A stretch of 64,000 nt of DNA from Candidatus Hydrothermarchaeum profundi (GTDB lineage: Archaea; Hydrothermarchaeota; Hydrothermarchaeia; Hydrothermarchaeales; Hydrothermarchaeaceae), in the NCBI GenBank assembly GCA_002011125.2, contig MTMF02000009.1, positions 84,332-148,331 on the forward strand, read 5' to 3'. A model generated the notes under the pieces. The model was not told the origin of the DNA, searched no databases, and saw only the letters and a list, made by a program, of their open reading frames with translations. The first letter of the stretch is position 1. Each line of letters begins with the position of its first letter. Shown here in pieces: positions 3,847-58,937 of this stretch. Both the position numbers and the translations under genes were made by a program.

Positions 3847-4329
3847 ATGGCCAAAATTAATGATGCTCCTCCAGAGATATTCAAAGCGGATAATTTATTA
3901 CAAAAAATCTTAAAAGAAGCAGAGCCTGCAAAAGACATGTTATTGGAGAGGCTTCGCACTTTACCACGCTACGAATCACACTTAGATGCTCCTTCTTTAC
4001 CGGGTGTCTATGTGATATGGGATGGAAAGAGGGTGGTTTATGCTGGTAGCTCAGGACACGGGGAAAAGACTGGTCTTAGGCAAAGGCTCTATAGGGTATT
4101 AAAACGCACGGGGCTGAGTCCTTTGAGGAAAGGCATAGCTAGAGACATAGGCCATCCAGAATATCAACCTAAGTCGAGAGGCCCAAGAAATCCAGAAATC
4201 GAGGAGAAAATAGACGATAGAGTTAGCTCATTGGTGTTTTCTTATATTGAAGCTAGTGATAGTAAATCTGCAAGGAATTTGGAACGCCTCATTATATCGC
4301 TTCTGGATCCAAAGTATAATAAGGGATAG
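3847..4329 (+). CDS. GIY-YIG nuclease-domain protein (putative)
   Basis: GVYVIWDGKRVVYAGSS matches the GIY-x(9-11)-YIG spacing. It is followed by a conserved-type Arg (LRQRLYR), a Glu (NLERLI) and a terminal YN. Confidence 0.55.
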   Translation: MAKINDAPPEIFKADNLLQKILKEAEPAKDMLLERLRTLPRYESHLDAPSLPGVYVIWDGKRVVYAGSSGHGEKTGLRQRLYRVLKRTGLSPLRKGIARDIGHPEYQPKSRGPRNPEIEEKIDDRVSSLVFSYIEASDSKSARNLERLIISLLDPKYNKG

Positions 4330-4424
4330 AAATTCCTTAAGATCTAGTTGACGGTTCCATTAAATTTCGAAAGGAACCATAAAGACGAAGAGGTGATTAA
4401 AAGATTTAAAAGGGGCGAAGGGAG

Positions 4425-4964
4425 ATGCCAAAGGAGTCAGAATGGCATAGAGAAGTTCGAGGGAAAATCGAGCGACATTTAAAGAACAAAAATATTAAAT
4501 TCAAATCCTCGCATTCCGGGGTCAAAGTCCCCTTATTTATAGACTTTAGTGACACTTCTAGGAGTAACCAATTGTCAGATGCAGATTTCATAATAATAAA
4601 AAACAAAACAATAAAATTCATCATTGAAATTGAGAAAGGGGCACCGACCCCAAAAAAGCTTATGGGTATTATAACGGCGGCCAATCTCTCAACCGCTTAT
4701 AAAAGACAGGAAGAAAAATTCAAGATTCAAAATGCAAAATTGTTCATAGTAACGGGAGATAAGGAGACGAATAAAATGAATAAACCTAAAAGCAAGAAGC
4801 TAGAGCAGTACCACAATATCAAGAAACATCTTAAATTGACCAAGGGTTCTCTGGTAGGGTTTGACATACTTACACTTATGGGCAAAAAAGATTTAGAGAA
4901 AATATATAGCGAAATAGACAGCATTATAAAAGTACCTCTGAGAAAAGAAGACAAAATGCCCTAA
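4425..4964 (+). CDS. Hypothetical protein with a PD-(D/E)xK-like nuclease motif
   Basis: SDADFIIIKNKTIKFIIEIEKG has the D-x(n)-E-x-K arrangement on alternating hydrophobic strands typical of the restriction-endonuclease fold. The C-terminal half is lysine-rich. Confidence 0.4.
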   Translation: MPKESEWHREVRGKIERHLKNKNIKFKSSHSGVKVPLFIDFSDTSRSNQLSDADFIIIKNKTIKFIIEIEKGAPTPKKLMGIITAANLSTAYKRQEEKFKIQNAKLFIVTGDKETNKMNKPKSKKLEQYHNIKKHLKLTKGSLVGFDILTLMGKKDLEKIYSEIDSIIKVPLRKEDKMP

Positions 4965-5059
4965 AAAGATTACAAAAGATTAGAGAAGTTGTTTGTGACA
5001 AATTTTTGCACAACTGCCTAATCTTTGTAATATATATACTTTTGGTAAGGAATTGAAAA

Positions 5060-5236
5060 ATGGCTAAAAAGAAAGGTAGAAAAGAAAGGATCACAGTATA
5101 TGTGTCCCCGTATTTATATAAAGAGATAAAAGAGATGATAAACCGGGGTGATTTCTCTTCAGAATCTGATGTGGGTTACCAAGCTTTATCAGCTTTTGTA
5201 AGCCAATATAAAAAAGAGAAAAAGAAGTCTAAATGA
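5060..5236 (+). CDS. Ribbon-helix-helix (CopG/Arc-like) small DNA-binding protein, 58 aa, not in the ORF track
   Basis: My translation: MAKKKGRKERITVYVSPYLYKEIKEMINRGDFSSESDVGYQALSAFVSQYKKEKKKSK. A basic N-terminus, a beta-strand (ITVYVS) and two helices give the RHH pattern. The stop codon overlaps the alaS stop convergently. Confidence 0.5.
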   Translation: MAKKKGRKERITVYVSPYLYKEIKEMINRGDFSSESDVGYQALSAFVSQYKKEKKKSK

Positions 5237-8200
5237 GCTTCTCTTTTATGTAACCTCTAACCCACTCCACGGCTTCCGATAATTTCTCTTTATCCGATCC
5301 AGCCCCCCTACCAAAATCGGGCTTACCCCCACCTCCCCCACCTAATATTGCGCATGCCTTCTTTATAAGCTCCCCCATATCGATATCTACCTTCTTACCA
5401 CGTACCCCTAAGACTGATATCCTCTCATTAACCCCGAACAAGACGACTATCCTTTCATCTCCTACTAACCTTTGAGCAGCCTTTTGGATCTCCTCCATGC
5501 CTCCCTCCATCTCCTCGCATATCAATTCATATTCACCCAATTTTTGGATATGGAGATGTTCAACCTTCTTCTGTGCAATCTCCTCGGTTAACTTCTCAAC
5601 TTCCTTTCTCTGCTCCTTCCAAGTCTCAAAGATAAGCTTACATAATTTCTGAAGACTCAACGGCTCTCCCATTCCTTTTTCTGTGAAAATCTTCAGTTCC
5701 TCGATATTTTTTTCCTTGAGATTCAAAGCCCTCCTCATCCTATTAATCTCCCTGTGATCACTAAAGATTTCATTTAAAAATCGCCTTATGGTGTCCCTAA
5801 TGCTCCTAGGAGGAACAGAAAAAACATCTGCAGCCTCACCTACCTCATCTATCAAAGCATCCACAAACTGGAGGTCGGCATCTGAGAGCGAACTTACAGG
5901 CTCTCTTTTTAGGACCTTCAATATCCTCTTGCTATTCTCTAATTTTCTCCTAGTCTTCACATCGGTGAGGCTGGGTACTAACCTTGAGATGACCTCATTA
6001 CTCATTAAGTCTTCAAGAATAGAGTTATAGGGCTCAAGTATCCTGTCAACAATATATCTCCTAGCAGCGTCTCCTGCCACGTACTCCAACCTAACTACGC
6101 CGTCCTGAATTTTAGTTGAACCTATAATCTTAATATGCTCAGCTTCCCCGGTAAAGTTTAGATGGGTACCTCCACATGCCTCTATGTCATACTCATCGAT
6201 TTTAACAACCCTTATCTCTTTACCAGGCACCGCACCTCCCTGATATAGTCGGAAACCAAATTTGGCTTCTGCTTCATCCCGCTTATAGATTCTTTTCTCT
6301 ACCGGGATATTCTGTTTTATAATCTCGTTAGCCCTCTTTTCAATTGCTTTCAATTCCTGCTTTGAAAGAGCAGAGTAATGAGTGATATCTAATCTAGATT
6401 TCTCAGGCGTCTTTTCTGCACCAGCCTGCCATACGTGCTCGCCAAGAAACTCTCTAGCCGCTCCATTAATAATATGAGTGGAAGTGTGATGTTGAGCCAG
6501 TTGCCTCCTACGAGCCCAGTCTATTTTACCTTTAACCACGTCTCCTTCATTGAACGACATCCTATCAACCCTGTGAACAATGACATTCCCCTGCTTAAAC
6601 ACATCGGTAACCCTGCAACCATCAAGATAGCCGGTATCTGTTAACTGTCCCCCGCTGGTTGGATAAAAAGCAGTCCTATCCAATACGACATATTTATCCT
6701 CAAATATCTTTAACACCTTAGCATCGAACTCGATGAGACTATAATCATCGTAATAAAGAATTTCAGTCTTATCTATACCCGACAAATCAAACTCCTTTAA
6801 TTTAGTGGCTTTAACTTCACCCTGCGACTGCTCATGGCGCTCTGAGACTCTTATAAAAAAATCTGAGGGTATTTTAATATCCAGACCCGCTTCCCTTAAC
6901 ATCTCTGGACTAATCCCCTGGGAGTCATAGAGCTCTATAAGTTTCTCTAACGATATATCCTCCCTTTTTAGCCTAGATACTATCCTCCTAGACTTAGCCT
7001 TAGTTTCAGAATACTTTTTCTTCTCGATATCTAAAATCTCTCCAACTTCCTCTAGATTTTCTGTAAGTTCCGGATACTGCGGCTTAAGATATCTCGCATG
7101 AAGATCACATACCTCTGGTAAAGAGACCTCCCAACCATTCTTATATATAAGATCTAAACTCCTCCTTATCAAAACCCTAAGATTATAACCCCCTCCCACG
7201 TTTGACGGGAGAGCTCCATCACTTAATGCTAGCAAGAGAGAGCGAGAATGGTCCCCTATTGAATAAATAGCCGCCAGCTTAAGGACTTTTTCCTTTAGCT
7301 CTTCTACATCCAGGCCTATTTTACCCGCTATCTCTACCCAAACTCTATCCATATCTGATTCTACAGTAAGAATACTCGAGTAGGGTATGAAATCTCCAAT
7401 TACTTCATTTCTCTCGACACCTGTGACATCTAATAAATGCTCAACGACTGTGGGGAATACCGCGTCATAGCTTGTCGGAGTACCTAACGTAAACCATGCA
7501 GGACGCTCTTGACCCATACCCATATCAAGAACCTTAATAGCAAGCTCCTTAGGAACTCCTGACTTTATGTCATATTGCATATACACTTGATTTCCTATCT
7601 CAAGTCCCCTAGAAAAGAATTCCATGCTAGGACCCATGTTTCCTCCCCCTGCCCATGCGTCCTCATGAAATTGAATTTCCCCTTTCGGTATTTTCATGCC
7701 TTCAACCAACCATGCATATATGTGTCGAAGATACTCGCTGGGCTTGTAGTTCTCAGGCTTTTCAAAAGCATGCTGTCCGATCATAACGAAACCGGTATAA
7801 TGCCTACCGGTAATGCCAACATTGTCAGTATCATTAAAACGTAAACAAAATTGAGGCACTACAAGAGGATTAGCCGGAGGATCTACTTCCCCAGAAACAC
7901 AATATGGTTGAAAATCATATATAGATGCCTGCACAAAATCCGTGTCATCTCTCCAACGAGCCACGACCGGATATCTCGGTATAGGAGTATACCCGAATCT
8001 TTCAAAGAGCTTTGCAAACTTTTTCCAAGTTTCAATATAGTCCATCTTATTCCTTGCTGGTGAATTTCCAATGAAGTCATATCCCCCAGAACACTCAGGC
8101 TCGCCACATACCTCCCTCTCAGAATAAGACCAAAAATAGCTACCGCATTTTACACATCTCTGTCTCTCAAATCCTTCTTCTATTAGTACCTCTACAGGAT

Positions 8201-37924: not shown

Positions 37925-37978
37925 ATAACGCGAGTTGGTTCAGTATTAGATATAAATTTTCTCTCTTTATGCTTTATT

Positions 37979-39226
37979 CTAAAAAATACCTTTTCTAGCA
38001 ATATTTAGCATTTCAAAAGAAAAAATTAGCGCAGAAAGAAAGAAGACTAACGCAGAGGCTTTCATAATTGGTACAGAGATTAATGAGCCTAAAAAAAGTC
38101 CTACGATACCAATATTAGCTAGTATAAATATAACCCACGAAAGCCTCTCACTGTAAAGTTCTTTAAAGTTAGAAGGAAGAGACTTAACTTTCTTCTCGGC
38201 CATATTGGCCCAAGTCAACATCGGTATAAGGTGATACATTCCACCGAATATCGTCAAACTTACCCAGCCAAGCATCGCTAGATGAACATGTCCAAAGGAT
38301 AGCTCTCTTAAAATATCTCGATTGAGAAGCATTACAAGACCTACTATTACGACTGCAAGGAAGTATAATATCGCCGCTTCAAGGAACTTCGCCTCTGTGG
38401 ATGTAACCTTCATTTTCATTTTTGATTCTCCAGAGGCTGTTTTGTACATGAGATAGGTAAAAAGAAGCGTTCCTATTATTACTATAATGGCAAAGATAAT
38501 TGTAGTTACTCCAAACCCTGTTGCTATAAGACTTAAAAAGAAACCTACTACTCCAGCGTTGAAGACCCAGAAGACCTGCCTTACTAGACGTTCACTATAA
38601 ATATCCTTCATAACCACCATAGGAAGCATCCAAGACATAGCCCCAATAATGATAACTGATATCCAGCCGAGTGCACCAATATGAGCATGAGAAGCTATTA
38701 GCTTAGAACTTGAAGGTAATATTCTCCAAAGCTCAAGGATTTCCATCCTCATTAGCACTATTATTAACCCTAACGTGCTACCGAGAACTAAGTATACTAC
38801 CGACATAACGTAAAACCAGAGAGTGAACGTCCATGCTCTCTTGTTTTTTACTGTGAGAAAAATATTAGCAGCAAAAGCGTAAACCGCTATAAGTAAAAAA
38901 AGAGAAAAAAGTAGGGTAAAAGGCTCAAACCCGTATGTTGTAATCCCAACTACAAAGCCTATTAGCCCCAGATTTAACATCCAGAAAGATATTTCTCCAA
39001 GAATCTTACTATAAAGATCAGCGCTCGTAAACGTCGGTACCTGCTGATACATTGTGCCGATTATAGTCGCTGAAACGAATCCAAGTAAGGCAATATGTGC
39101 ATGAGATACAATAACATCTCTGGTAATAGGGAATACTTGAAAAAGCATCCCTATACCTAGCGTACACGCCGCTAAGAAATAGACTACAGCTGTAATTAGA
39201 AATCTGAGGCTAAGCTTTCTAGTCAT
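37979..39226 (-). CDS. 12-TM membrane protein made of three tandem 4-TM repeats, each with an HxH motif (possibly distant NnrS / haem-copper-oxidase-like); last gene of the nor operon
   Basis: 415 aa. SHAHIALLGFVS (H42/H44), SHAHIGALGWIS (H180/H182) and GHVHLAMLGWVS (H313/H315) are each followed about 25 residues later by YS(K/E)(I/R)L and a small-residue helix (NLGLIGF / NAGVVGF / NIGIVGLF). The start lies 13 nt downstream of the preceding mini-ORF. Confidence 0.6.
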   Translation of the reverse strand: MTRKLSLRFLITAVVYFLAACTLGIGMLFQVFPITRDVIVSHAHIALLGFVSATIIGTMYQQVPTFTSADLYSKILGEISFWMLNLGLIGFVVGITTYGFEPFTLLFSLFLLIAVYAFAANIFLTVKNKRAWTFTLWFYVMSVVYLVLGSTLGLIIVLMRMEILELWRILPSSSKLIASHAHIGALGWISVIIIGAMSWMLPMVVMKDIYSERLVRQVFWVFNAGVVGFFLSLIATGFGVTTIIFAIIVIIGTLLFTYLMYKTASGESKMKMKVTSTEAKFLEAAILYFLAVVIVGLVMLLNRDILRELSFGHVHLAMLGWVSLTIFGGMYHLIPMLTWANMAEKKVKSLPSNFKELYSERLSWVIFILANIGIVGLFLGSLISVPIMKASALVFFLSALIFSFEMLNIARKGIF

Positions 39227-39239
39227 ATTTTACTCCTAT

Positions 39240-39356
39240 TCACCCATGTATGAACATTGGCAAACATCGGACACAAACATAGTCTTCTTTACCCTTATAG
39301 TAGAATTTAAGGATTTTTACTTCATCATCCGTTCTCTTACAGTTTGAACATTCCAT
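39240..39356 (-). CDS. 38-aa CxxC...CxxC zinc-ribbon mini-protein, not in the ORF track
   Basis: My translation: MECSNCKRTDDEVKILKFYYKGKEDYVCVRCLPMFIHG. It fits the operon exactly, 19 nt after the cupin stop and 13 nt before the next start. Confidence 0.5.
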   Translation of the reverse strand: MECSNCKRTDDEVKILKFYYKGKEDYVCVRCLPMFIHG

Positions 39357-39375: not shown

Positions 39376-39690
39376 TTATATTGGTGGAGCAATACCCACC
39401 AGTACCTTCATCCTCGTTTTAGCTCTAATACCGTGTGGTTCACTTACAGGGGATACAAGAAGAGAGCCCCTCTTGGCGGGTATATCCTTTTCCCCACCAA
39501 TAAAAGAGCCTTCGCCTTCTAGTACGCAGAGAAATACTTCTGAATCCACATCGTGAGAGTGCACCGGAAGCTCTTGCCCTGGCTCGAAACAAAATAGGAT
39601 AAGTCTCATATTGTAGGAGTCATGGACAAAGTCCAGCCAATACTTATCCTTTTTGAATTTTGCTACTTCTTCGAGTTCTATTTTTTTCAT
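39376..39690 (-). CDS. Metal-binding cupin-domain protein
   Basis: Cupin motif 1 is PVHSHDVDSEVFLCVLEGEG (HxH-x4-E). Motif 2 is GSLLVSPVSEPHGI. It starts 13 nt downstream of norB. Confidence 0.8.
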   Translation of the reverse strand: MKKIELEEVAKFKKDKYWLDFVHDSYNMRLILFCFEPGQELPVHSHDVDSEVFLCVLEGEGSFIGGEKDIPAKRGSLLVSPVSEPHGIRAKTRMKVLVGIAPPI

Positions 39691-39703: not shown

Positions 39704-41059
39704 TTACATCTTGGGTCTTAACGTCAGTAGGTCTGTCACAGTTCTCAAGACTCCTATAAAGAACACTATCCCTATGCCTATGACGGCCTTGAACCAGAAC
39801 TGCATCTGAGCTTGTGCTGTCATATATCCAAGTCCTAGCACTCTTTCAAGGTAAGTCTGTAAAATGCCCGCTCCACTGAAAGCTAGTCCTATTCCAGTCA
39901 TGCTGAATATCATTATCCAAAAGCCTAGTTTACCTCTACTATCATCGTAGATTCTGTATCCTTTAATCTCCGGTATAGCGAAGTAGAAGAACATCAAATT
40001 AAACAAAGCATATGCCCCAAAGAAAGCCAAGTGCCCATGTGCTACCGTAACTTGGCTACCGTGAGTATAGTAGTTAATCTGAGGTAAAGTATGCATGAAA
40101 CCCCAAATACCTGCTCCAATGAAGTGGTATAAAGCTCCACCTCCCATGTAGGTCCAAGCTAGAGGGTTGACAAGCTCCATCTTCCTCTCTCTAGTCCACT
40201 TAAATACATCGATCACCATAAGCAGAATTGGCAAAGGCTCCAATGCGCTGAAGACTCCTCCAACATATAGCCAGTACCGAGGGGCTCCAAGCCAATAGTA
40301 GTGATGACCCGTTCCTGCAATACCTGTAAATAAGAATAAACCGATCTCTATGTAGAGCCATTTTTCAACAACCTCTTTGTTAACTCCAGTCAACTTTATA
40401 AGCGCAAATGCCGTGAGTGATGCCACCACAAGCTCCCAAGCGCCTTCAACCCATAGATGGATTACCCACCACCAGTAGTACCAGTCTATGGTTTCATTTT
40501 CATAAACAGGTATCCCGAAGAGATACAGTAAGGAAAGGGTAATCAGTCCGGTTAATAGCATTGCCTGGGTAACGGTCCAATGTTCGCCTTTTAAAATAGT
40601 CATCCCCACATTGAATAAGAAAATTAGTGCACCTACTACCACAAGTAAGTCTAGCCATCTAGGTATCTCAAGAAGAGGTCTACCCTGATTGAAATTGAAC
40701 CAGGGATTATCAATGGTTATTCCCATGCCATTTATGAATATAGTTACTAATGCAGTTACGCCGACTAATACTAACGCTGCGAGTTGTATATACGCAAGCT
40801 TCTTACTATAGAGTTCTCTTTTCGATTCCTCTGGGATCATGTAGTATGTAGCACCCATAAAACCCAGAAGAGACCAGAGCACCAATAGATTAGTATGAAA
40901 TGCTCTTGCGGTTGAGAATGGAAATACGTTCACTAGCCATTGAGGCAGAGTAAAGGCATAGTTTGTCGCTAGCCATAACCCCATTACCACTTGTAGAACG
41001 AACAATAATAAAGCGACAACAAAATAAGGATAGGCGATCTTTTGGCTTTCGTATTTCAT
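39704..41059 (-). CDS. norB: Nitric oxide reductase catalytic subunit NorB (cNOR type)
   Basis: 451 aa, 12 TM, collinear with bacterial NorB as I remember it. Motifs: WWWVIHLWVEGAWE (FeB His/Glu), GTGHHYYW (FeB His pair), AHGHLAFFGAY (haem b3 / haem b ligands), ARAFHTNLL (haem b ligand). Confidence 0.93.
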   Translation of the reverse strand: MKYESQKIAYPYFVVALLLFVLQVVMGLWLATNYAFTLPQWLVNVFPFSTARAFHTNLLVLWSLLGFMGATYYMIPEESKRELYSKKLAYIQLAALVLVGVTALVTIFINGMGITIDNPWFNFNQGRPLLEIPRWLDLLVVVGALIFLFNVGMTILKGEHWTVTQAMLLTGLITLSLLYLFGIPVYENETIDWYYWWWVIHLWVEGAWELVVASLTAFALIKLTGVNKEVVEKWLYIEIGLFLFTGIAGTGHHYYWLGAPRYWLYVGGVFSALEPLPILLMVIDVFKWTRERKMELVNPLAWTYMGGGALYHFIGAGIWGFMHTLPQINYYTHGSQVTVAHGHLAFFGAYALFNLMFFYFAIPEIKGYRIYDDSRGKLGFWIMIFSMTGIGLAFSGAGILQTYLERVLGLGYMTAQAQMQFWFKAVIGIGIVFFIGVLRTVTDLLTLRPKM

Positions 41060-41772
41060 TTCCTACCCTCCTTTAAATTTGCAATATATTCAGCTATGGC
41101 TTCTGCCTCTTCTTCCGAGACTCTTTGTGCTGGCATAGTTGCATCGGGATTAATCGATCTTGGGTCAAGTATATAGTTCTTAATGTAATCTTTATCTCGC
41201 TTCACTTGCTCAAACTCTGGTCCCTGTAGTCCTCCTACACCTCCTAGAGAATGGCATGCTAAGCATCCAGCTTCCTTTATAAGAGCTGCTCCTTTGCTCA
41301 TTCCTACTCCGGCTACAAGAATATTTACCCCTGGCTTATATTTTTGGTCTTGGGGTGGCCAATTATTGTTTTCAATCTCGCTTACCCATTTCAAAAAGGC
41401 TATTAGATTCTTCACCTCTTCCTCTGTTAGGTCATATTTCGGCATTTTTCTCATCGAGTTAGCAAAGACCTTATCAGGACCTAAGACTCTAACTTTTATG
41501 CCCTCCGCTCCTAGTCTCCAATATGCTTTTGTCATGTCTGGAGCGTAATATCCTCCGAAACCAAGTATAGTATGGCAATCATTGCAGTTATACTTCTCCC
41601 ATACAGCTTTTCCAGCAATGACTTGAGGAGTTAATTGGTCTGCGTGGGTTAATGCTGTAACTTGTCTATGGGTATCTATAGTAAGACCTAAGAGTATCAT
41701 TGCTGAAATCGAAGTTCCTATTATAAATATCCATTTAGCTGCTTTGAATTCCATAATATCCCTCCTTCTCAT
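41056..41772 (-). CDS. norC: Nitric oxide reductase subunit NorC fused to a second class-I cytochrome c domain
   Basis: TM anchor, GKAVWEKYNCNDCHTILGFGGYYAPD and FLKWVSEIENNNWPP match NorC. Residues ~150-238 add a second CLACH with a candidate Met ligand in DATMPA. The probable true start is the ATG at 41754, preceded by AGGAGG. ATGA overlap with norB. Confidence 0.9.
   Translation of the reverse strand: MRRRDIMEFKAAKWIFIIGTSISAMILLGLTIDTHRQVTALTHADQLTPQVIAGKAVWEKYNCNDCHTILGFGGYYAPDMTKAYWRLGAEGIKVRVLGPDKVFANSMRKMPKYDLTEEEVKNLIAFLKWVSEIENNNWPPQDQKYKPGVNILVAGVGMSKGAALIKEAGCLACHSLGGVGGLQGPEFEQVKRDKDYIKNYILDPRSINPDATMPAQRVSEEEAEAIAEYIANLKEGRK
41761..41766 (-). promoter_or_regulatory. Shine-Dalgarno AGGAGG 6 nt upstream of the second in-frame ATG (41754) of norC
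   Basis: The minus-sense sequence reads ATGAGAAGGAGGGATATTATGGAATTC. Confidence 0.5.
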
Positions 41773-41904
41773 TCATATGTAATTTCCTGAAATTTATGAC
41801 TAAAATACATCTCTAATATAAAAAAATTACTACTATATATTAAATATTAATTATAATAAAAAGCTTTATTTTATAGATATTTACTAAATATTCTTAAAGT
41901 TAAT

Positions 41905-42960
41905 CTACCAGTGAAAGCGGACATTAGATCTAACATTTCTTACCCCTCCCATCAAACCATCAACATGTTTAATTGTAGATGGCAATCCAGTCTTTTCAAA
42001 GAACTTTTCCCATCCAATTCTAGCAATCCAATCCCCAATTCTTTCGTCTCTACGAGCATCTTCCACCCACGTATCGATTATATTCTTAACCGCAGTTACT
42101 ACCTCAGGCCACTGCGGAGGATTATTTGGGATATATGGTATGACCATTTTTGCCCATGCAGGACCTGCACCCGTATTTCCAGCCTTTCCGCCCACGACGA
42201 TTGCTACTCCCGCAGTTTCAGGCCTCATAGTTAGTGCCTCGCAAGTCATGGTACAGTATGCACAGTATATACATCTTTCAGGATTAATTTCTATGCTGTA
42301 TTTGCCTTTTGGTCTAATTGCAGCCGTAGGACAAACTCTTATAGTGGTGGGTCTTTCACAAGCTTTGACCTTTTCTTCATTTATAACAGGCGGCTCTCTA
42401 TACACTCCAACAACACCTATGTTTGAAGTAGAACCCTCGCCACATTGGTTAATGCAACCTGAAACCGAGATTTTGAGCTTAGCAGGATACACTTCATCGT
42501 CTGCAACAAATTCTCCATAAAGAGCATCGGAAATAGCCTTAGCGATACTTGGAGAATCAGCGGCTGCCAATTGACAATGTAACCATCCAGTACAACAAGT
42601 GGTCTGATGAAATCTTCTTCCAGTACCACCTACTGGCAAACCTAATTCGTTGAGTTTAGTTATTAATTCGCTAATTTTTTCTTTTTCTACGCCCACGAAC
42701 TCCACATGATTTCTAGTGGTAACCCTGAAATAACCCTCTGAATATTCATCCGCAAGATCGCATATTTTATAAAGAGTAGAAGTACTCACTCTAGCATTTG
42801 TTGGCATTCCTACTCTAACAGTATAACACTCTTCTCCACCCTTAGATACATGCTTATACACTCCCGCCTTAACAAATTCATGACCAACCCACTTTCCATA
42901 GTTACGCATTATAATAGGGGGTAATACTTCCTCAAATGGAGGTATCCCTACACCGGGCAT
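41905..42960 (-). CDS. dsrB: Dissimilatory-type sulfite reductase beta subunit
   Basis: N-terminus LPPIIMRNYGKWVGHEFVKAGVYKHV, sirohaem/[4Fe-4S] cysteines CTGWLHC ... CINQC, and an inserted ferredoxin domain CIYCAYCTMTC. Confidence 0.85.
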   Translation of the reverse strand: MPGVGIPPFEEVLPPIIMRNYGKWVGHEFVKAGVYKHVSKGGEECYTVRVGMPTNARVSTSTLYKICDLADEYSEGYFRVTTRNHVEFVGVEKEKISELITKLNELGLPVGGTGRRFHQTTCCTGWLHCQLAAADSPSIAKAISDALYGEFVADDEVYPAKLKISVSGCINQCGEGSTSNIGVVGVYREPPVINEEKVKACERPTTIRVCPTAAIRPKGKYSIEINPERCIYCAYCTMTCEALTMRPETAGVAIVVGGKAGNTGAGPAWAKMVIPYIPNNPPQWPEVVTAVKNIIDTWVEDARRDERIGDWIARIGWEKFFEKTGLPSTIKHVDGLMGGVRNVRSNVRFHW

Positions 42961-42961
42961 A

Positions 42962-44104
42962 CTACATCAGCTCCTCTATCTTCCAATGATAAAAGAGGTT
43001 TTCTCTCGGAATAGTGAGTTCCCGTATATCAACTTCTACTCCAACCAATTTTATGAACTTGTCAAATCCAAATCTATGGAGAAACTCTCCCATACGTTCT
43101 TTAGGCATAGCATTCTCATCATAGACTTCTACAACTCTCTCTATAACATCCAAAATTTCCTTGAATTTAGGAGGAGAAGACTTAATGAACGGAACAAGGA
43201 CCTTAGCCAATGTAGGGCCATATTTACTCCTGAACTTACCTCCAACCAGGATGGATGCCCCTCGATCTTCTCCAGGACTAATCGCAGGACACTGATTTAT
43301 GCAATACATGCAATGAACACAGGCTTCTGAATCTATTGTAAGCTCATTTCCATCCCAACTCATAGCCCAGGTGGGGCACTTAGAGCAAATATAGTTAATG
43401 TCCCCGCCATTTTCAACCCAGCTCACTAATTTTTCCTGATCTACTAATGGCGCATCTCTAAAAGTTCCACACACAAAGATCTCGCTTTTGTGGATTCCAA
43501 GCACACAATCATTTGGACAGCCCGCTGCTTTGGTTTTTATCTTATGAGGAAACCTAGGATACTGCATATCATCTAACAAGTGCTTTGTGAATGCATTTCT
43601 AAATCCAATGGTATCGAACAACGCTACGTCACATCTCGCAGGACCAATACAAGCTTTAACCGTTCGAAGAGTGACATCCGTAGAGCCTACATCCAGACCA
43701 ATTTTTTCCACTTCTTTTACGAGATCAGGAATCTTGTCATGCGGTACTTCGATAAGCTCTATATCGCTTGTAGTTGCAAATAGATGAATAAGGCTCCCAC
43801 TATATTTTTCAGCGATTCTACATAGCTCTCGGCACATTTTCGTGGTGAAAAAAAGTCCTGGTGGAGGGAATATGCGTACAACACTTGATTCCTTTATTAT
43901 ATCAGGTCTTTTGGATGCCCGGGCAATTATACCACTAGGTACTCCGAATATTGAAATGTACCCGCCTCCCCGCCACTGGCTAACTTTGTTCTGTAAGGCT
44001 TCTTCATACATCATTATAGAATACTGTGATTTCTTTAACTCCGATGCATGACTGGGCCATGGTCCTTTACAAAGCTCGTCTACAAGAGGAGTATTTAATG
44101 TCAT
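42962..44104 (-). CDS. dsrA: Dissimilatory-type sulfite reductase alpha subunit
   Basis: N-terminus TPLVDELCKGPWPSHASELKK, CIGPARC ... CPNDC, ferredoxin insert CVHCMYCINQCP. A 1-nt gap separates it from dsrB. Confidence 0.85.
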   Translation of the reverse strand: MTLNTPLVDELCKGPWPSHASELKKSQYSIMMYEEALQNKVSQWRGGGYISIFGVPSGIIARASKRPDIIKESSVVRIFPPPGLFFTTKMCRELCRIAEKYSGSLIHLFATTSDIELIEVPHDKIPDLVKEVEKIGLDVGSTDVTLRTVKACIGPARCDVALFDTIGFRNAFTKHLLDDMQYPRFPHKIKTKAAGCPNDCVLGIHKSEIFVCGTFRDAPLVDQEKLVSWVENGGDINYICSKCPTWAMSWDGNELTIDSEACVHCMYCINQCPAISPGEDRGASILVGGKFRSKYGPTLAKVLVPFIKSSPPKFKEILDVIERVVEVYDENAMPKERMGEFLHRFGFDKFIKLVGVEVDIRELTIPRENLFYHWKIEELM

Positions 44105-44259: not shown

Positions 44260-44961
44260 TTATTTACCTCTAAAAAAAGCCTTATCTACATTGCAACTGA
44301 TGATCTTAACCAGCTTTTTCATATCATCATCGCTTAAAACTCTCGAATTCCTAAGGCCCCTGTCCATAGCAAATCTCGGCTGGAATTTCTGTAATACGTA
44401 AAGTTTAGCTCCTTTTATATCCCTCGAAATTTGCTCTATGTCCCTAAAAGTATGTAAAGACGGAACTACAGTCGTCCTAAACTCGTACTCTACTCCACTA
44501 TTCTTTATTAAATTTACACTCTCTCTAATCTTATCAACTTCGCATCGCACTCCACTGACTTCAGAATACTGCTCTTCATTTAAGGGAGCTTTTATGTCCA
44601 TAGCAATATAGTCCACAAGGTCTTTTTCCAAAAGCCTTCTAACAACTGTAGGGTTAGTGCCATTCGTATCGAGTTTTATCTTTATCCCCAGCTTCTTCAC
44701 TCTCTCGCAAAACTTATCTAGTCCTTTTTGTAATGTTGGCTCACCGCCTGTAATACAAACTCCATCTATAAAGTCATTATGCTTAGTGAGAAAATCAAAA
44801 ATTTCCTCTTCTTTAACATCTTCATACTGCTCAGGGTTAAGAACTAACCCATGATTATGGCAAAAAGGACATCGTAGGTTACATCCCGGAGTAAAGACTG
44901 TGCATGCTACCTTTCCATCCCAATCTAGGAAAGTTGTATCGATAAATCCTTTAATTTGCAT
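44260..44961 (-). CDS. nrdG: Anaerobic ribonucleotide reductase activating radical-SAM protein
   Basis: FTPGCNLRCPFCHN radical-SAM CxxxCxxC, ITGGEPT, and operon context with nrdD. Confidence 0.85.
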   Translation of the reverse strand: MQIKGFIDTTFLDWDGKVACTVFTPGCNLRCPFCHNHGLVLNPEQYEDVKEEEIFDFLTKHNDFIDGVCITGGEPTLQKGLDKFCERVKKLGIKIKLDTNGTNPTVVRRLLEKDLVDYIAMDIKAPLNEEQYSEVSGVRCEVDKIRESVNLIKNSGVEYEFRTTVVPSLHTFRDIEQISRDIKGAKLYVLQKFQPRFAMDRGLRNSRVLSDDDMKKLVKIISCNVDKAFFRGK

Positions 44962-45197
44962 ATCTCATTCCTGTCCGGTATCTCTCCTCTCCAAGAGCGA
45001 AGCTCATTATCATCATCATCAACTATAATTGTAGTAGGAGTTGAAAGCACGCTATAAAATGCTGCTTCTGCCATTCCATCCACGTCTTCAATGTTAAAGT
45101 ACTCAACCGCGATTCCATCTTTCTCTAAACTTTTACAGATTTCTTTCGTAGGGGGACATTTAGAGCAATTTTCTTGCCAGAATAGCTTGACTTTCAT
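44925..45197 (-). CDS. Glutaredoxin/NrdH-like small redoxin
   Basis: 90 aa with thioredoxin-fold pattern: KVKLFWQENCSKCPPTKE (CxxC) and STPTTII (cis-Pro region). Confidence 0.7.
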   Translation of the reverse strand: MKVKLFWQENCSKCPPTKEICKSLEKDGIAVEYFNIEDVDGMAEAAFYSVLSTPTTIIVDDDDNELRSWRGEIPDRNEICKLKDLSIQLS

Positions 45198-45259
45198 TTC
45201 AGTTACCTCCGAACTAAAAAATTTGAGGGACCTCTCCTCCTCTCAAAACGCGGGGTTAC

Positions 45260-45409
45260 TTAGTTGGCGAAATGCCATCTATCCCTCGCCATCCGGTCCC
45301 TCAGTTCTCCTATTTTTCCCTTATTCCAACCTTCTACTTTTGAGAAAAACCCTGTCACTCTCGTGATGTGTTCTACGTTTTCTGAGCCACAGCATGGACA
45401 TCTATCCAT
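45260..45409 (-). CDS. Stand-alone glycyl-radical / half-zinc-ribbon C-terminal module of NrdD (49 aa)
   Basis: MDRCPCCGSENVEHITRVTGFFSKVEGWNKGKIGELRDR carries the CPxCG half of the NrdD zinc site and the RVxG(Y/F) glycyl-radical motif with the WNxGKxxE tail. The tracked ORF starts at a GTG (45451), but the ATG at 45409 has a canonical SD. Confidence 0.7.
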   Translation of the reverse strand: MDRCPCCGSENVEHITRVTGFFSKVEGWNKGKIGELRDRMARDRWHFAN

Positions 45410-45415
45410 CTTTTT

Positions 45416-45422
45416 CACCTCC
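45416..45422 (-). promoter_or_regulatory. Shine-Dalgarno GGAGGTG between the nrdD stop (45426-45428) and the ATG at 45409
   Basis: The minus-sense sequence reads TAA-AAA-GGAGGTG-AAAAAG-ATG. The same GGAGGTGA element precedes the gene at 902. Confidence 0.55.
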
Positions 45423-45425
45423 TTT

Positions 45426-47366
45426 TTATAGTCCTCTTGTTGTACGCCCACAATCCAGGCAGCTTGTAAACTCGGGGCTAAATGCGATTTGATCGTTTTG
45501 AGTATTTTTGAATGTTTTAACTACAAAACTCGCTATTCCGCCTGGATCAGGCCTCGCTTCACCAATCCATATATGGGAGAGCGATCCTGCTTCTATTAAT
45601 GGGTGAAACATTCCTTCTTTTTTAACTCTCTCAATCGGGCTTAGAGGCACTCCAACGTTAAGATAAGTCGAATTAGTATAATAAATTTCATTTTTTTCAA
45701 CAATCCCTTTAACTACCGTAAGCGCTTCGTCTCTGTAATGCTCCAAATCTAGTTTGGCCATTCTATAAGCAGTACTTTCCGCGGGAGTTTGCTCTAGAAC
45801 AAATCTAAGTCCATATTTCTCCCCAAGTCTTTCTGCCTCTTTTTTCATGAAAGCAATCACTCTTAGACCAAATTTCAAGGCTTGATTTGACTCATGCATC
45901 TCCTCTCCAGTATGGTATTGTACGAGCTCGTTTAAACCCACCATCCCAAAGAGGAAAGTTGCTCTGTGCAATCTATAATATGGTTCTCCATCTCTATTCA
46001 TAGAGAGCAAGCTTAGGGGGCCCTGATTTTTCATGTCCAATAATTTCTTAATAAAGTTCCTCTTGTAGACATGTGCTCTAGCCATAAGCTCCATTCTTTC
46101 AGTTATTATCTCGAAGAGCCTCTCATCACTTCCGCCCGCTTCATACGCCACTCTCGGGAGGTTGAGGGTTACATTTTGCATGGCTGAATAGCGCATCTTC
46201 CATGGAGTTTTTGCATCCTCAAAATCTGATTTCTCAAGCTTAAAGGAAAGCCGGCAGCACTCACTTATCTTTGCTGTTTCACCCCGGTCGAATACGTAAT
46301 AAGTGTTACCTTTATCAGAAGAAACATCAGAGATTAGGTAAAGGAAATCCTCGTATCCTTCCGTTTTGAATAATCTCTCTGTTATGTGTACCTGAGGTTT
46401 GGGGAAAAAGAAGGGTCTTCCAAGGCCATCACCTTCTTTGTATACTTTGAAAAGCGCTATAGCAAATTTCTGAGATTCTTCGATATAATCCTCATAGTTA
46501 TTCCCCGTAAATTTTCCTCCAGGACCTATAGCAGGAACTCCAATAAAGTGTTTTGGTATTTCCCAATATATATTCAAATCAGAGAATATAGACTGCCCCC
46601 CACGAGCCACGCTTTGCTGAGCAAACTCAAAGATAAGCATCTGTGCTAACTGTTCTAGTTTCTCATTATCCACTCCTACAAGATAAGGTGCAAAAAATAG
46701 GTTTACTGCGTCCCATCCGATAGCTCCCGCAAAATTGCCTTGAAGTGCTGCAGAAAACTTTATCATTTGCCCTATTAGAACTTCAGGATGTTTAGCTGGC
46801 TTTGATATAGATATTGCGTTAGGGAGGCTTAAACCAAACTTTTTTACATATTCTAGCGAGTTTCCAGAACAGTATGGCCTATCTATCATTCCTAAATCAT
46901 GTAAATGGAAATCCCCTTTCTCATGAGCTACAGCAATTTCTGGAGGAAATATTTTTAAAAGTGCATATTGCTTCTTTATTGACTCTGCCAAGGTTAGATT
47001 CGTAGCTTCAGGGCCATGAGGTACATTGGCGTTTTCTCTATTTCGTGATATAAGCATTTGATCTACATCATATATTGGTAACCCTAACCGGGTATGCTGT
47101 TTTCTCTCCTCTTCCAATCCATATTCTATGAGTTTCCCATTTACAACTTCACGTATTAGAGGAGCCGTGATAAACTTTATCTTAGATTTAATTATGGTTT
47201 CTTCGACTTCCTTACTTATTTTTTCAGCAAGTTCGGGGGATATGGTGGTTTCTCTAAGAAGTGCTTCCACTATACTTTTTCTGTCCCATTTAACTACATC
47301 CTCTCTTGAAACCTTAACAAAGAGGGCAGCATCGGTTGAATCGTTTGAAACTATCATTCCAATCAC
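45426..47366 (-). CDS. nrdD: Anaerobic (class III) ribonucleoside-triphosphate reductase, large part lacking the glycyl-radical C-terminus
   Basis: 646 aa with an ATP-cone-like N-terminus and GDFHLHDLG. It ends right after the first zinc CxxC (SCLDCGRTTRGL-stop). Confidence 0.9.
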   Translation of the reverse strand: MIGMIVSNDSTDAALFVKVSREDVVKWDRKSIVEALLRETTISPELAEKISKEVEETIIKSKIKFITAPLIREVVNGKLIEYGLEEERKQHTRLGLPIYDVDQMLISRNRENANVPHGPEATNLTLAESIKKQYALLKIFPPEIAVAHEKGDFHLHDLGMIDRPYCSGNSLEYVKKFGLSLPNAISISKPAKHPEVLIGQMIKFSAALQGNFAGAIGWDAVNLFFAPYLVGVDNEKLEQLAQMLIFEFAQQSVARGGQSIFSDLNIYWEIPKHFIGVPAIGPGGKFTGNNYEDYIEESQKFAIALFKVYKEGDGLGRPFFFPKPQVHITERLFKTEGYEDFLYLISDVSSDKGNTYYVFDRGETAKISECCRLSFKLEKSDFEDAKTPWKMRYSAMQNVTLNLPRVAYEAGGSDERLFEIITERMELMARAHVYKRNFIKKLLDMKNQGPLSLLSMNRDGEPYYRLHRATFLFGMVGLNELVQYHTGEEMHESNQALKFGLRVIAFMKKEAERLGEKYGLRFVLEQTPAESTAYRMAKLDLEHYRDEALTVVKGIVEKNEIYYTNSTYLNVGVPLSPIERVKKEGMFHPLIEAGSLSHIWIGEARPDPGGIASFVVKTFKNTQNDQIAFSPEFTSCLDCGRTTRGL

Positions 47367-51070: not shown

Positions 51071-53161
51071 TCATAGTGGGCATTCCCCAGTAATGCAGCC
51101 ACCAGAGAATTCAGAGTCCGCCACTATCCCCTCCCCCGTTTCTTTTTTTAGACCGCCAACTACTAACACCTGTTTTTCTTTACTGCCATAGCGATATACT
51201 GTAATGCCCTTGCATTTCATCTTATAAGCCATCATAAAGATTTTCCTGATATCTTCTAAAGTAGCATTAGCAGGTAAATTAACAGTTTTAGAAACAGCAT
51301 TATCTACATATTTTTGGAAGGCTGCCTGCATCTTAACATGCCACTCAGGCGCAACATCTAGAGAGGTAACAAATACTCTTTTAATATCTTCAGGTATTCC
51401 TTGAATGCCTTGGATGGTTCCATAGCGAGAAATCTTTATCATTAGATCATTGCTGTAAAATCCCCTCTCTTTAGCCACTTCCTCGAATACTGGGTTCACC
51501 TCCAACAGCTGGGTTCCCATAACGTTTCTCATAAAGCTCAGTGCAAAGATGGGTTCAATACTGGATGTGGTGCCAGCAATTATGCTTATAGTCCCAGTCG
51601 GTGCAATGCTATTCACAGTCGCATTCCTCATTCCTTTATATTTCCCCTTCCAAATGCTTTTTTCAAAATTGGGAAAAGATCCGCGCTCTTCAGCAAGCTC
51701 TAATGACTTTTTTCTGGACTCCTCGCTTATGAATTTCATTATCTTCTCAGCGGTCTTTAAAGCTTCCTTAGAGTCATAAGGGATAGAGAGCTTCGCCAGC
51801 ATCTCAGCAAGCCCCATAACTCCTAGACCTATTTTCCGATTATTCTTAGTGGTTATCTCTATTTGTTTGATGGGATACTTGTTCGCATCAATAACGTTAT
51901 CCAGAAAATGAATTCCAAGCCTAATGGTTTCTCTTAGTTTCTCCCAATCTATCTCTCCATCCTTCACCATCTTAGAGAGATTAACTGAACCTAGATTACA
52001 TGACTCATAGGGTAAAAGGGGAACCTCCCCACAGGGGTTAGTGCTTTCTATAACACCAAGTTTTCTCAATGGATGCCTCCGATTAATTTCATCCAAAAAA
52101 ACTAAACCTGGGTCACCAGTGCGCCAAGCCATGGTCACTATTAGGTCAAAAACATCTCGCGCCCTCAATTTTCCTACAGGCTTCCCAGTTCTAGGATTAA
52201 TTAATTCATATTCCTCATCTTTTTTTACTGCCTCCATAAATACGTCAGTTACCCCCACCGATATGTTAAAGTTGTCCAAAAATCCTTCTTTCTCCTTAGC
52301 TGTTATAAACTCTATAATATCAGGGTGGTCCACTCTAAGAATACCCATATTAGCTCCTCTTCGTCTACCTCCCTGCTTTATCACCTCAGTTGCCTGATCA
52401 AATACACGCATAAATGAGACCGGTCCTGAAGCGACTCCTTTGGTTGTACGTACAATGTCTCCTCTAGGTCTTAGCCTAGAAAACGAAAAACCTGTTCCCC
52501 CACCAGACTGGTGTATTAGACTCATATCCCTCAATGTCTCAAATATGCTCTTCAAAGAATCTTCAATTGGGAGGACAAAACAAGCACTTAACTGCCCAAG
52601 ATCCGTACCTGCATTCATGAGAGTCGGAGAATTTGGTAGAAAATTAAGAGATGCCATGGCATTATAGAAACTCTCTTCAGACTTCTCTACGTCCCCACCA
52701 TATCTCTTATCTATTGCTGCGATAGCCTTAGCTACCCTCCTAAACATCCCAGAAGGAGTTTCTATTATATTTCCGTTTTCATCCTTTAAGAGATAACGCC
52801 TTTCCAGTACCCTAATCGCATTTAGGTTTAGCTTAAGTTCGTCTTTTTCAACTCCCAAAAGTTTTTTAGCTTCTCTTACCTCAGTTCGCTTTTGTCTATA
52901 AAGAATGTATGCCTTAGCTACTCTTGCATGGCCATTCTTAATTAATACCTCCTCAACTATGTCCTGAACATCCTCAACGCTGGGGATAGCATTCTTGAAT
53001 CTCTCTTTGAGAATTTCAACTACTTGTTGAGACATCTCCCTAGCAAGGTCTCCATCCCTTTCTTTAACAGCTAGGATAGCTTTTTGTATTGCAATAGTTA
53101 TCTTTTGCGAATCAAACGGGACTAGTCTTCCATCTCTCTTGCGTATTTTTTCCATTTTCAA
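51071..53161 (-). CDS. nrdJ: Adenosylcobalamin-dependent (class II) ribonucleotide reductase
   Basis: ATP-cone ([16 protein letters not shown]), [16 protein letters not shown] (thiyl-radical Cys loop), and a C-terminal Cys pair ([10 protein letters not shown]). Confidence 0.93.
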
Positions 53162-57701: not shown

Positions 57702-58937
57702 TCATCTCAATTTCTCAGGGGCCCACTTTTCTAAAGCTATTTTGAGTTCTCTATGATTTTCCGCATATTCTTTGAGAGATATTCCTTCTACTACTGCGCT
57801 AACTGCCTGCCGCATAGCGGTAGCACCAGCCCTCGTTCCTTCATCATGCCCATGGATCCCTCCGCCAGCCTGAATTACAACATTTATGCCAGATATTTTT
57901 ATAAGATCGTCAACTATTCCTGGATGTAAGCCGCCTGAAGCAACACTCAACACCTTCCTCAATCCAATCTCTTCTTCTAGAACTGCTTTGTACTGTAAGT
58001 CCTCATCAGGCGAGCCCTTCATCTTTCCGACACCAAACGAGCCTATATGGAGCTGGTCTACTCCTATTAAACGAGCTATTTTTGCTATTACTTTCATCGA
58101 TATACCATGCCGCTTATGTCTAGTTAAAGCCGCATGCCCTGCCCTATGGGCATGTATTACCCTATCAAGGCCTGCATTTCTAATTGTTTGAAGAGAGGCC
58201 CAGCCCGAGGTCAGGATATCGACCATTATGTATTCCCCGCCGTTTTCCTTAACCAGTCTGGCTCTTTCAAGCATCTCGAGAGTTTCAGCAGTTATGTTTG
58301 GCATATAGATCTTCTTTTCTCCTGTTTCCTCCTCAGCTTTATCTCTCATCCTTAGAGTTTCCTTAATTCTCTTCGAGAAGGGATTGAACTTCATATTAGC
58401 TAGGTTTTCATCATCTTTAACTATATCAACGCCCCCTACCCAAGCTTCATATGCAACCTTAGCATGCTCTTTCGCGTTTAATCCAAGCTTTGGTTTTATT
58501 ATGGTTCCAATAAAAGGCCTATTTTTAATCCCAGTGAGATCTCGAATACCTTCAATCCCAAATTTAGGGCCTTTAAAAGATCTTACGATACCCTCTGGGA
58601 ATATGACATCTAAAAGCCTAAGATGAGTCACTTCCTTAAGTCCAAAAATGTTTCCAGCTATTGAACTCAGTATCTGAGGCATATTGGCTTCTTCAAAAAG
58701 TACTTGAGGATATGCGATTTTGGCTGTTTTTGATTCAAGGTCATGATAAAATACCTTCGGGGCTAATTTCCTTTTTATTTCATCCTTCATCGTAGTAAGT
58801 GCAGTCCAAGTGCCTATAGAACTCTCCGCGGCAATCCTCTCGGCCGCCTCTAAATGGGGAATCCCTTCTACTTCGTAATAAAACTCGCAAACTAAATCGC
58901 CAGACGAAGGAGTATAATTTAAGTCAAGATAGCTCAC
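57702..58937 (-). CDS. rbcL: Ribulose-1,5-bisphosphate carboxylase large subunit, archaeal form III-type
   Basis: All canonical catalytic motifs are present: AAESSIGTW, GNIFG, IIKPKLGL, GGVDIVKDDEN (carbamylated Lys), IHAHRAGHAA, LHIGSFGVGKMKG, ASGGLHPG, QAGGGIHGH. No small-subunit gene is present. Confidence 0.92.
   Translation of the reverse strand: MSYLDLNYTPSSGDLVCEFYYEVEGIPHLEAAERIAAESSIGTWTALTTMKDEIKRKLAPKVFYHDLESKTAKIAYPQVLFEEANMPQILSSIAGNIFGLKEVTHLRLLDVIFPEGIVRSFKGPKFGIEGIRDLTGIKNRPFIGTIIKPKLGLNAKEHAKVAYEAWVGGVDIVKDDENLANMKFNPFSKRIKETLRMRDKAEEETGEKKIYMPNITAETLEMLERARLVKENGGEYIMVDILTSGWASLQTIRNAGLDRVIHAHRAGHAALTRHKRHGISMKVIAKIARLIGVDQLHIGSFGVGKMKGSPDEDLQYKAVLEEEIGLRKVLSVASGGLHPGIVDDLIKISGINVVIQAGGGIHGHDEGTRAGATAMRQAVSAVVEGISLKEYAENHRELKIALEKWAPEKLR

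Follow-up and report, generated by a model that had tools for sequence, protein, structure and literature searches.

The catalytic subunit of the haem-copper oxidases (HCOs) ranks among the oldest and most thoroughly studied membrane enzymes, and its pseudo-threefold symmetry has been recognised ever since the first structures were solved. Its low-spin haem is ligated by a histidine of helix II and the second histidine of helix X, and its high-spin haem by the first histidine of helix X, with CuB on the distal side, held by a histidine of helix VI. The described members that resemble our protein most are the CcoN subunit of the cbb3 oxidases and NorB, the catalytic subunit of the cytochrome c-dependent nitric oxide reductases (cNORs). 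Here we describe gene X, located in a 64,000-nucleotide stretch of contig MTMF02000009.1 of the archaeon Candidatus Hydrothermarchaeum profundi (the whole stretch is termed the window). Gene X is the likely last gene of a cluster for a nitric oxide reductase (NOR), and its product combines the HCO fold with a triplication that is still visible in the sequence. The gene and its three units are as follows:

37979 to 39226, minus strand: gene X, ATG start, 415 residues with 12 transmembrane helices, an HCO subunit I fold made from three sequence-similar units of four transmembrane helices.
38831 to 39226, minus strand: unit 1, residues 1-132, helices 1-4, HxH motif H42/H44 at 39095-39103.
38411 to 38830, minus strand: unit 2, residues 133-272, helices 5-8, HxH motif H180/H182 at 38681-38689.
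37982 to 38410, minus strand: unit 3, residues 273-415, helices 9-12, HxH motif H313/H315 at 38282-38290; it includes H332.

A sequence-only reading of this DNA had proposed a 12-helix protein built from three similar units of about 135 residues, each with an HxH motif on its second helix, and the proposal was confirmed. For unit-by-unit alignment, the protein was cut at residues 132 and 272. In Smith-Waterman alignments the units are 33-40% identical to one another over almost their full length, with scores 15-24 standard deviations above those of shuffled sequences (0 of 500 shuffles scored as high), and profile-profile comparisons of unit against unit, made with 36 relatives, gave E-values of 2e-38, 6e-35, and 1e-34 across some 125 residues. 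NorB, encoded next to X, served as a control, and its three four-helix arcs gave Z-scores of 0.0, 1.0, and -0.7; therefore, the repeat of X is not a by-product of hydrophobic composition. The control also agrees with the earlier statement that HCOs lack a detectable sequence repeat. A self-BLAST of X returned the identity match alone.

All of the motifs quoted in the sequence-only reading were found. The HxH motifs on the second helices of units 1-3 are SHAHIALLGFVS, SHAHIGALGWIS, and GHVHLAMLGWVS, whereas the third helices carry the YS(K/E)(I/R)L motif (YSKIL, YSERL, and YSERL) and the N-x-G-[LVI]-[IV]-G motif (NLGLIG, NAGVVG, and NIGIVG). X possesses seven histidines in total (42, 44, 180, 182, 313, 315, and 332). 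The six that belong to the HxH pairs are invariant in the closest 40-odd relatives, and H180 is invariant family-wide. When units 1-3 of 12 relatives were stacked into one alignment of 36 unit sequences (termed A2), the first and second histidines of the motif (His-1 and His-2), one Gly, one Pro, and one Phe were invariant. This Gly, at position +7 from His-1, is conserved in all units (G49, G187, and G320 in X), as in helix X of HCOs. The seventh histidine, H332 (38231-38233), is situated close to where helix 10 reaches the cytoplasmic side and is invariant in the group of relatives with six motif histidines (the six-His group); in the bacterial group of the family, position 332 is Lys in 97% of the sequences, and position 313 is Tyr in 75%.

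The AlphaFold2 model of X, computed from an alignment of 22 relatives, consists of 12 long helices arranged as 4+4+4 (predicted local distance difference test, pLDDT, 93.4; predicted template-modelling score, pTM, 0.92). A Foldseek search with this model gave template-modelling (TM) scores of 0.81-0.82 to cbb3 CcoN and 0.70-0.82 across the A, B, and C families together with cNOR and qNOR, and the top 50 PDB structure matches were all HCO catalytic subunits. At the sequence level, X matches the Pfam COX1 profile (PF00115) in three stretches with 89.8 bits (curated cut-off 34.8; E = 2e-25) and no other Pfam family. The fold and the COX1 match together indicate that X is a full-length member of the HCO superfamily rather than a fragment, confirming by structure prediction and by profile search what the sequence-only reading had suspected. 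None of the outcomes that would have refuted the sequence-only reading was observed; the COX1 match does not amount to a full-length match with a characterised family known to have such a triple repeat. Fold, superfamily, and repeat are, in our judgment, close to certain.

X nevertheless does not look like an enzyme. Its histidines are in register with the ligands of the low- and high-spin haems of CcoN (H60 and H345/H347) and with NorB according to the sequence alignments, yet the CuB/FeB ligand set, in HCOs a helix VI His and the His-His of helix VII, joined in cNOR and qNOR by a Glu, is missing: the equivalent of helix 7 (residues 212-236) has no His, there is no Glu, and of the CuB ligands of HCOs only the helix VI-type histidine has a counterpart in the alignment. 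In the six-His group the equivalents of helices 6 and 7 have no conserved Tyr, hence no cross-link Tyr. Given the lack of a CuB/FeB ligand set, X is neither an oxygen reductase nor a nitric oxide (NO) reductase of a known type, and, as judged by its ligands, it is a non-catalytic member of the superfamily. Databases list the relatives of X as "cbb3-type cytochrome c oxidase subunit I", which is an over-annotation, since X scores only 62.2 bits against the ccoN model TIGR00780, for which the cut-off is 583; NCBIfam holds no model for X. Decay of a duplicated norB gene was also considered and rejected, because the motifs are invariant in a family that, at E ≤ 1e-30, runs to over 700 clusters.

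Comparison with the closest systems shows both what X shares with them and what sets it apart. CcoN (PDB 3mk7 and 8smr) has the same 12-helix fold and is the best PDB match by sequence; its helix X, GHVHAGALGW, aligns with SHAHIGALGW of X, and all three of its arcs are recognised by the A2 unit profile with the ligand histidines in register. In the first register the profile covers helices I-IV and aligns His-1 with the haem b ligand of helix II, in the second it covers helix VI and places His-2 on the CuB ligand, and in the third it covers helices IX-XI and places both histidines on the HxH of helix X. A phmmer search of X against the PDB gave registers in agreement. X differs from CcoN by having no helix VII His-His, no cross-linked Tyr, no CuB site, and no CcoO/CcoP partners, and by possessing a third His pair that has no counterpart in HCOs. 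Moreover, the arcs of HCOs show no detectable repeat, whereas those of X are 33-40% identical. NorB (PDB 3o0r_B and the window copy) shares the superfamily and the fold (TM score 0.70), and in the window it shares the operon, but its FeB ligands (the Glu/His of HLWVEG, and GHHY) are missing in X and the pairwise similarity is marginal (best BLASTP E = 4e-4). The A2 profile aligns with arc A of the window NorB at 30 bits, matching His-1 to the His of helix II and LYSxRL to LYSKKL, and with arc C at 16.6 bits (AHGH). The likeness of the HxH-x4-G motif to the AHGHLAFFGAY helix of NorB had been pointed out earlier.

The correspondence between particular units and particular arcs is less clear. Pfam places unit 1 alone on COX1 positions 4-147 (helices I-IV), unit 2 on 308-403, and unit 3 on 344-399, so that units 2 and 3 both fall on helices IX-XII. 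Profiles of the separate units match arc A of NorB best regardless of their position, and phmmer favours a shifted unit-to-arc register. A circular permutation was considered as an explanation and dropped for the loss of a different site, since Pfam, the per-unit profiles, and phmmer disagree and no register is privileged. The proposed kinship with NnrS (PF05940) did not hold as a direct match. NnrS, an NO-responsive haem/copper membrane protein, resembles X in length (about 400 residues), in its 12 transmembrane helices, and in its N-oxide gene contexts, but X has no match to PF05940 at E ≤ 0.1 and its units have none at E ≤ 10; the link is indirect, through single-unit relatives that match both COX1 and NnrS (E ~1e-6).

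Combining the known ligands of HCOs with the unit registers leads to a simple cyclic rule, in which His-1 of one unit pairs with His-2 of the preceding unit. Residues at positions i and i+2 of a helix point in nearly opposite directions; therefore, each HxH helix takes part in two adjacent pockets, with one ligand in either. HCOs hold their low-spin haem by this geometry, with the helix II His and the second His of helix X. The pairs predicted for X are H42 with H315, H180 with H44, and H313 with H182. HCOs make use of two such pockets, and X has kept the ligands for all three. We examined the rule by reading the six positions in an alignment of 247 distinct members and loci; these sequences are related, so that the counts do not represent independent events:

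H44 with H180: both present in 244, both lost in 2, exceptions 1 (n = 247).
42 with 315: both present in 42, both lost in 204, exceptions 1 (n = 247).
182 with 313 (His or Tyr): both present in 178, both lost in 41, exceptions 28 (n = 247).

Several distinct patterns of histidine loss occur among the 247 sequences. Alternative pairings fit badly; for example, 204 sequences keep position 180 but lost 315. HCOs obey the rule too, with a different pocket lost. The N-terminus of X and its Lys/Arg-rich loops are cytoplasmic, which places the histidines close to the outer membrane face, as in HCOs.

Based on these data, X may carry a ring of three b-type haems with bis-His ligation, close to the outer membrane face; we consider haem binding by the His pairs, as suggested by their covariation, somewhat probable. 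X would then act as a membrane redox module, possibly linked to quinol, and would exchange electrons with outward-facing c-type cytochrome N-oxide reductases, namely NorC/NorB in the window and an octahaem HAO-like cytochrome in relatives, while a cytoplasmic cupin and a 38-residue four-Cys peptide would be co-expressed accessories. The role as an electron-transfer partner is a tentative assignment when taken by itself. For the joint reading, a non-catalytic HCO member with three bis-His b-haems that is the redox partner of such reductases, we estimate a probability of about 0.5.

The genomic context of X in the window consists of the following features:

41773 to 41904, minus strand: AT-rich intergenic region with several TATA-like runs upstream of norC, a probable promoter.
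41056 to 41772, minus strand: norC-like gene for a dihaem c-type cytochrome (two CxxCH motifs; Pfam Cytochrom_C, Cytochrome_CBB3, and NorB_cytochrome_c-like), overlapping norB by 4 nucleotides.
39704 to 41059, minus strand: norB, the cNOR catalytic subunit, E = 5e-116 to Pseudomonas aeruginosa NorB (3o0r_B).
39376 to 39690, minus strand: cupin gene, 104 residues, between norB and the small reading frame (Pfam Cupin_2, E = 3e-10).
39240 to 39356, minus strand: open reading frame for a four-Cys peptide of 38 residues, MECSNCKRTDDEVKILKFYYKGKEDYVCVRCLPMFIHG, with an AAGGAGG ribosome-binding site, ending 13 nucleotides before the start of X.
37925 to 37986, minus strand: here the unit probably ends and a promoter of its own probably serves the next gene, with a T6 run (37981-37986) over the stop codon of X and TTTATA at 37951-37956.

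The NorB of this locus carries HLWVEG, GHHY, and AHGHLAFFGAY and is a true cNOR NorB. Its gene lies 478 nucleotides upstream of X, close to the 500 or so given in the sequence-only reading. The space between the cupin gene and X is not empty, as it contains the conserved reading frame for the four-Cys peptide, which that reading had missed. A match of the peptide to the ClpX C4 zinc finger had an E-value of 0.02-0.06, below the cut-off, and we do not claim such an identity for it. The intergenic sequences were read directly, given the archaeal host, with no bacterial promoter or terminator scan. The gaps along norC, norB, cupin, peptide, and X are -4, 13, 19, and 13 nucleotides, and this tight spacing, together with the AT-rich region, the T6 run, and the TATA-like element, suggests that the five genes likely form one transcription unit. 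A DUF354 gene follows on the same strand, 54 nucleotides after X, with TTTATA about 30 nucleotides before its ATG; the T6 run at the stop codon and this TATA-like element make X the likely last gene of the unit, in line with its earlier placement at the end of a NOR operon. Pfam searches found no norQ/norD, DUF1858, DUF2249, or DUF59 gene at the window locus, and a scan of the whole window against Rfam gave no match.

Directly upstream of the nor operon lies a dsrA/dsrB-type dissimilatory sulfite reductase gene pair (41905-44104, minus strand), whose dsrB scores above the NCBIfam cut-off; genes for sulfite and NO reduction side by side are unusual in an archaeon. Two ribonucleotide reductases, one of class III (NrdD/NrdG) and one of class II (B12-dependent), and a RuBisCO of type III are also encoded within 20 kb (44260-47366, 51071-53161, and 57702-58937, all on the minus strand). 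NrdD/NrdG is syntenic with the X locus in its closest relative too (locus L001). The remainder of the window encodes archaeal housekeeping proteins.

The X family is large, with 724 clusters at 50% identity (E ≤ 1e-30) and 393 genome loci from a single search pattern. The six-His form accounts for 43 of the sequences examined, and the named ones all belong to Hydrothermarchaeota or related archaeal metagenome-assembled genomes. The bacterial branch, mostly with the histidine pattern x-H / H-H / Y-x, is found in Bacteroidota (Pontibacter, Pedobacter, Lutibacter), Campylobacterales, Gemmatimonadota, Verrucomicrobiota, and Chloroflexota. Some members are long: P0036 (862 residues) has two full profile matches and may be a tandem fusion, P0042, P0045, P0049, P0099, and P0100 have 520-536 residues, and those of loci L041, L048, and L069 have 521-526; one group has a C-terminal extension of about 100 residues. 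A second family of 12-helix proteins, with 415-450 residues, an HAHSHVGFLGW motif, no Pfam match, and 45-60 bits to the X-family profile, sits near bacterial X-family genes in Pontibacter and Saprospiraceae (L048 3112-4359, minus strand; L032 7-1278; L051 42-1343; L054 3469-4740; L058 131-1483).

Gene neighbourhoods were counted in 18 six-His loci and 82 loci of the bacterial branch. The four-Cys peptide gene is present in 13 of the 18 six-His loci, mostly 5-150 nucleotides upstream of X (window 39240-39356, minus strand; L001 7654-7785; L009-L014; L086 6782-6994; L004 6647-6829; L087 9768-9911), and is missing from the bacterial loci. The peptides are 38-40 residues long and share the pattern CxNC...CxRCLPM[LF]IHG-stop. 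Seven of the 11 six-His loci with the peptide gene close upstream adjoin genes for NorCB-like or octahaem c-type cytochromes. In the closest relative (L001/L002) the cupin-peptide-X trio is found again, divergent from genes for a NOR-like HCO, a cytochrome c, and UbiA; in L001 these span 3964-7116 on the minus strand and encode a 544-residue NOR-like HCO (E = 2e-50 to NorB), a 221-residue cytochrome c, and a prenyltransferase of the UbiA family (haem O synthase-like), the last being an unusual companion of a NOR. An octahaem HAO-like cytochrome gene lies directly upstream in five six-His loci, where it ends a napA-napG-napH-napD-frhB cluster. DUF59 adjoins X in seven six-His loci, and several metagenome-assembled genomes have two paralogues, one of each kind; ScdA_N/DUF59 and ArsR, PadR, or MarR genes also occur at six-His loci. 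In the bacterial branch, a DrpB-like protein with one DUF1858 and two DUF2249 domains is encoded directly upstream in 60 of the 82 loci (within L005-L085) and DUF59 directly downstream in 41-45, with hemerythrin, Rrf2, Crp, CopD, NadA/NadB, and NarHJI as recurrent neighbours. These neighbourhoods tie the whole assemblage to N-oxide metabolism or NO stress.

The family also includes single-unit proteins. Two bacterial loci contain free-standing reading frames of 151 residues that correspond to one family unit, with four helices and the invariant HxH. We found 3,172 such relatives, almost all of exactly 151 residues and mostly from Gemmatimonadota; examples of the genes are L018 5577-6140 (plus strand), L079 134-589 (minus strand), L089 5001-5456 (plus strand), and L088 5001-5456 (plus strand). 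Their proteins match Pfam COX1 on helices I-IV or IX-XII and, more weakly, NnrS (positions 255-365 of 371, E ~1e-6, with one at the 28-bit cut-off). An AlphaFold2 model has four transmembrane helices (pLDDT 88.6) and cbb3 CcoN as its best PDB match (TMq 0.66-0.73), although the shortness of the model keeps the E-values weak. As a homotrimer, such a protein would be expected to recreate the 12-helix scaffold. The genes often follow a small ScdA_N/DUF1858 gene and lie near nosZ or multicopper-oxidase genes; in one case the gene adjoins an ScdA_N/DUF1858 gene beside nosZ and stands in divergent orientation to an X-family gene of the bacterial branch, itself neighboured by DUF2249.

Several observations weigh against a respiratory role of X as the redox partner of N-oxide reductases. 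A NorB-like neighbour is found in only 2 of the 18 six-His loci (the window and a 64%-identical relative), so that the NOR linkage anticipated in the sequence-only reading stands for these two and fails as a family trait. Some six-His paralogues lie beside DUF59/ScdA_N genes rather than cytochrome genes, and the neighbours in the bacterial branch are cytoplasmic NO-stress and Fe-S-repair proteins or regulators, which would fit sensing or repair better than respiration. A NapGH-type quinol dehydrogenase is already encoded in the cluster of relatives. An energy-conserving role is also unclear, because three haems at one depth carry no charge across the membrane. A different possibility is that X serves in the membrane as a sensor or an anchor, with or without haem, and reports NO or the membrane redox state to cytoplasmic NO-stress, Fe-S-repair, and regulatory proteins, with DUF1858/DUF2249 (DrpB-type) proteins, DUF59, the cupin, the four-Cys peptide, and nearby transcription factors as its proposed partners. 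Besides the DrpB-like and DUF59 genes of the bacterial loci, with their recurrent hemerythrin, Rrf2, and Crp neighbours, it would account for the ScdA_N/DUF59 and ArsR, PadR, or MarR genes at six-His loci and for the single-unit relatives that abut an ScdA_N/DUF1858 gene beside nosZ. DrpB of Thermus thermophilus, a cytoplasmic protein of the same DUF1858 plus two DUF2249 architecture, is membrane-associated with no transmembrane segment of its own and modulates the expression of denitrification genes; according to PMC6282519, its partner in the membrane has yet to be identified. This partner could belong to the X family, although the connection to bacterial X members is one of neighbourhood and not of homology, the window has no DrpB-type gene, and the text of PMC6282519 does not tie DrpB to an HCO-like protein. 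A sensing function is harder to reconcile with the window locus, where DUF1858, DUF2249, and DUF59 genes are all missing, and with the six-His form itself: fully bis-His haems bind NO poorly, so that gas sensing suggests itself less readily for this protein than for the bacterial forms with lost or changed ligands. We consider this function, the main competitor, unlikely on balance, and it is compatible with haem binding, thus competing with electron transfer on function alone.

Two other functions have less in their favour. X might be a metal-handling accessory of the NOR that, together with the cupin, delivers iron (FeB) or haem to NorB in place of NorQ/NorD. According to PMC12067857, cNOR needs NorQD for the insertion of FeB and some clusters do not have them; the norC-norB-cupin-peptide-X operon has neither norQ nor norD, cupins and Cys4 peptides are typical metal binders, and other members of the family have CopD-like and DUF59 genes beside them. 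Most family members, however, are not beside any HCO gene, histidines at i and i+2 of one helix cannot chelate the same ion, no transport function is known for the fold, and the strict conservation of three symmetric sites would be left unexplained, all of which makes such a role quite improbable. A new haem-only enzyme (no CuB/FeB) that converts N-oxides or oxygen within the HCO scaffold would suit the fold and the N-oxide gene contexts, and the Tyr that replaces one His in bacterial forms could leave a reactive haem. In X and its close relatives, on the other hand, all six axial positions are His, so no open coordination site is expected, the sites have no conserved acidic or Tyr residue nearby, and a complete cNOR is encoded alongside; we regard this activity as very improbable. 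Electron exchange with outward-facing cytochrome partners, perhaps fed by quinol, seems the most plausible function for the subtype of X in the window, which has the peptide and lies beside c-type cytochrome reductases.

The triplication raises the question of how the HCO scaffold arose. Each unit of the bacterial branch scores highest against the archaeal unit at the same position (hhalign scores of 175 for unit 1, 139 for unit 2, and 164 for unit 3), and unit-specific loops are common to both branches; therefore, the triplication predates the split between them. The units of the six-His group, however, score higher among themselves (198-217) than with their bacterial counterparts (139-175), and this likeness would result from a constraint of symmetry that slowed their evolution, or else from gene conversion. 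It could also be taken to mean that the repeat of X is a recent, lineage-specific re-triplication or gene conversion of one HCO arc, uninformative on the origin of the scaffold, and the preference of all units for arc A of NorB, whatever their position, points the same way. Such a recent event is difficult to square with the positional matches and shared loops just mentioned, with the existence of single-unit proteins in the thousands, and with the ability of the unit profile to detect arcs A, B, and C of CcoN and not arc C alone, and we judge it improbable. A possible, though speculative and somewhat doubtful, alternative is that X-type proteins are survivors of a state that preceded the HCOs, a symmetric tri-haem cytochrome b. 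The ancestor would have been a homotrimer of four-helix HxH protomers, of which the free-standing 151-residue proteins would be living examples, and the protomers would then have been fused into a single 12-helix chain. Oxidases and NORs would have arisen when one haem site was lost and, at a second site, the distal His became a ligand of CuB/FeB, the bacterial X branch would have lost a different site, and NnrS would be a further offshoot. The suggestion in the sequence-only reading of a new cofactor-binding membrane family, or a window on how the scaffold arose, is consequently upheld for the HCO fold with a visible triplication and for a family with no description in the literature that could be searched; the binding of cofactors is predicted from the ligand pattern.

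The searchable literature, which leaves most subscription journals outside its coverage, contains no description of the X family, its repeat, the single-unit proteins, the triplication of HCOs, or a relationship between NnrS and HCOs, and the main text of a broad survey of HCOs (PMC11214002) does not mention X-type proteins.

In summary, X and its relatives supply the sequence evidence that had been missing for a triplication, a ligand-pairing rule that unites them with HCOs, and candidate single-arc protomers, so that the origin of the HCO scaffold becomes a directly testable question. Among the database entries that bear the name "cbb3-type cytochrome c oxidase subunit I", hundreds do not represent oxidases, and these misnamed entries would inflate the counts of aerobic-respiration genes in metagenomes, including those of anaerobic archaea such as Hydrothermarchaeota. 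The X family is a recurrent, uncharacterised part of N-oxide and NO-stress gene clusters.

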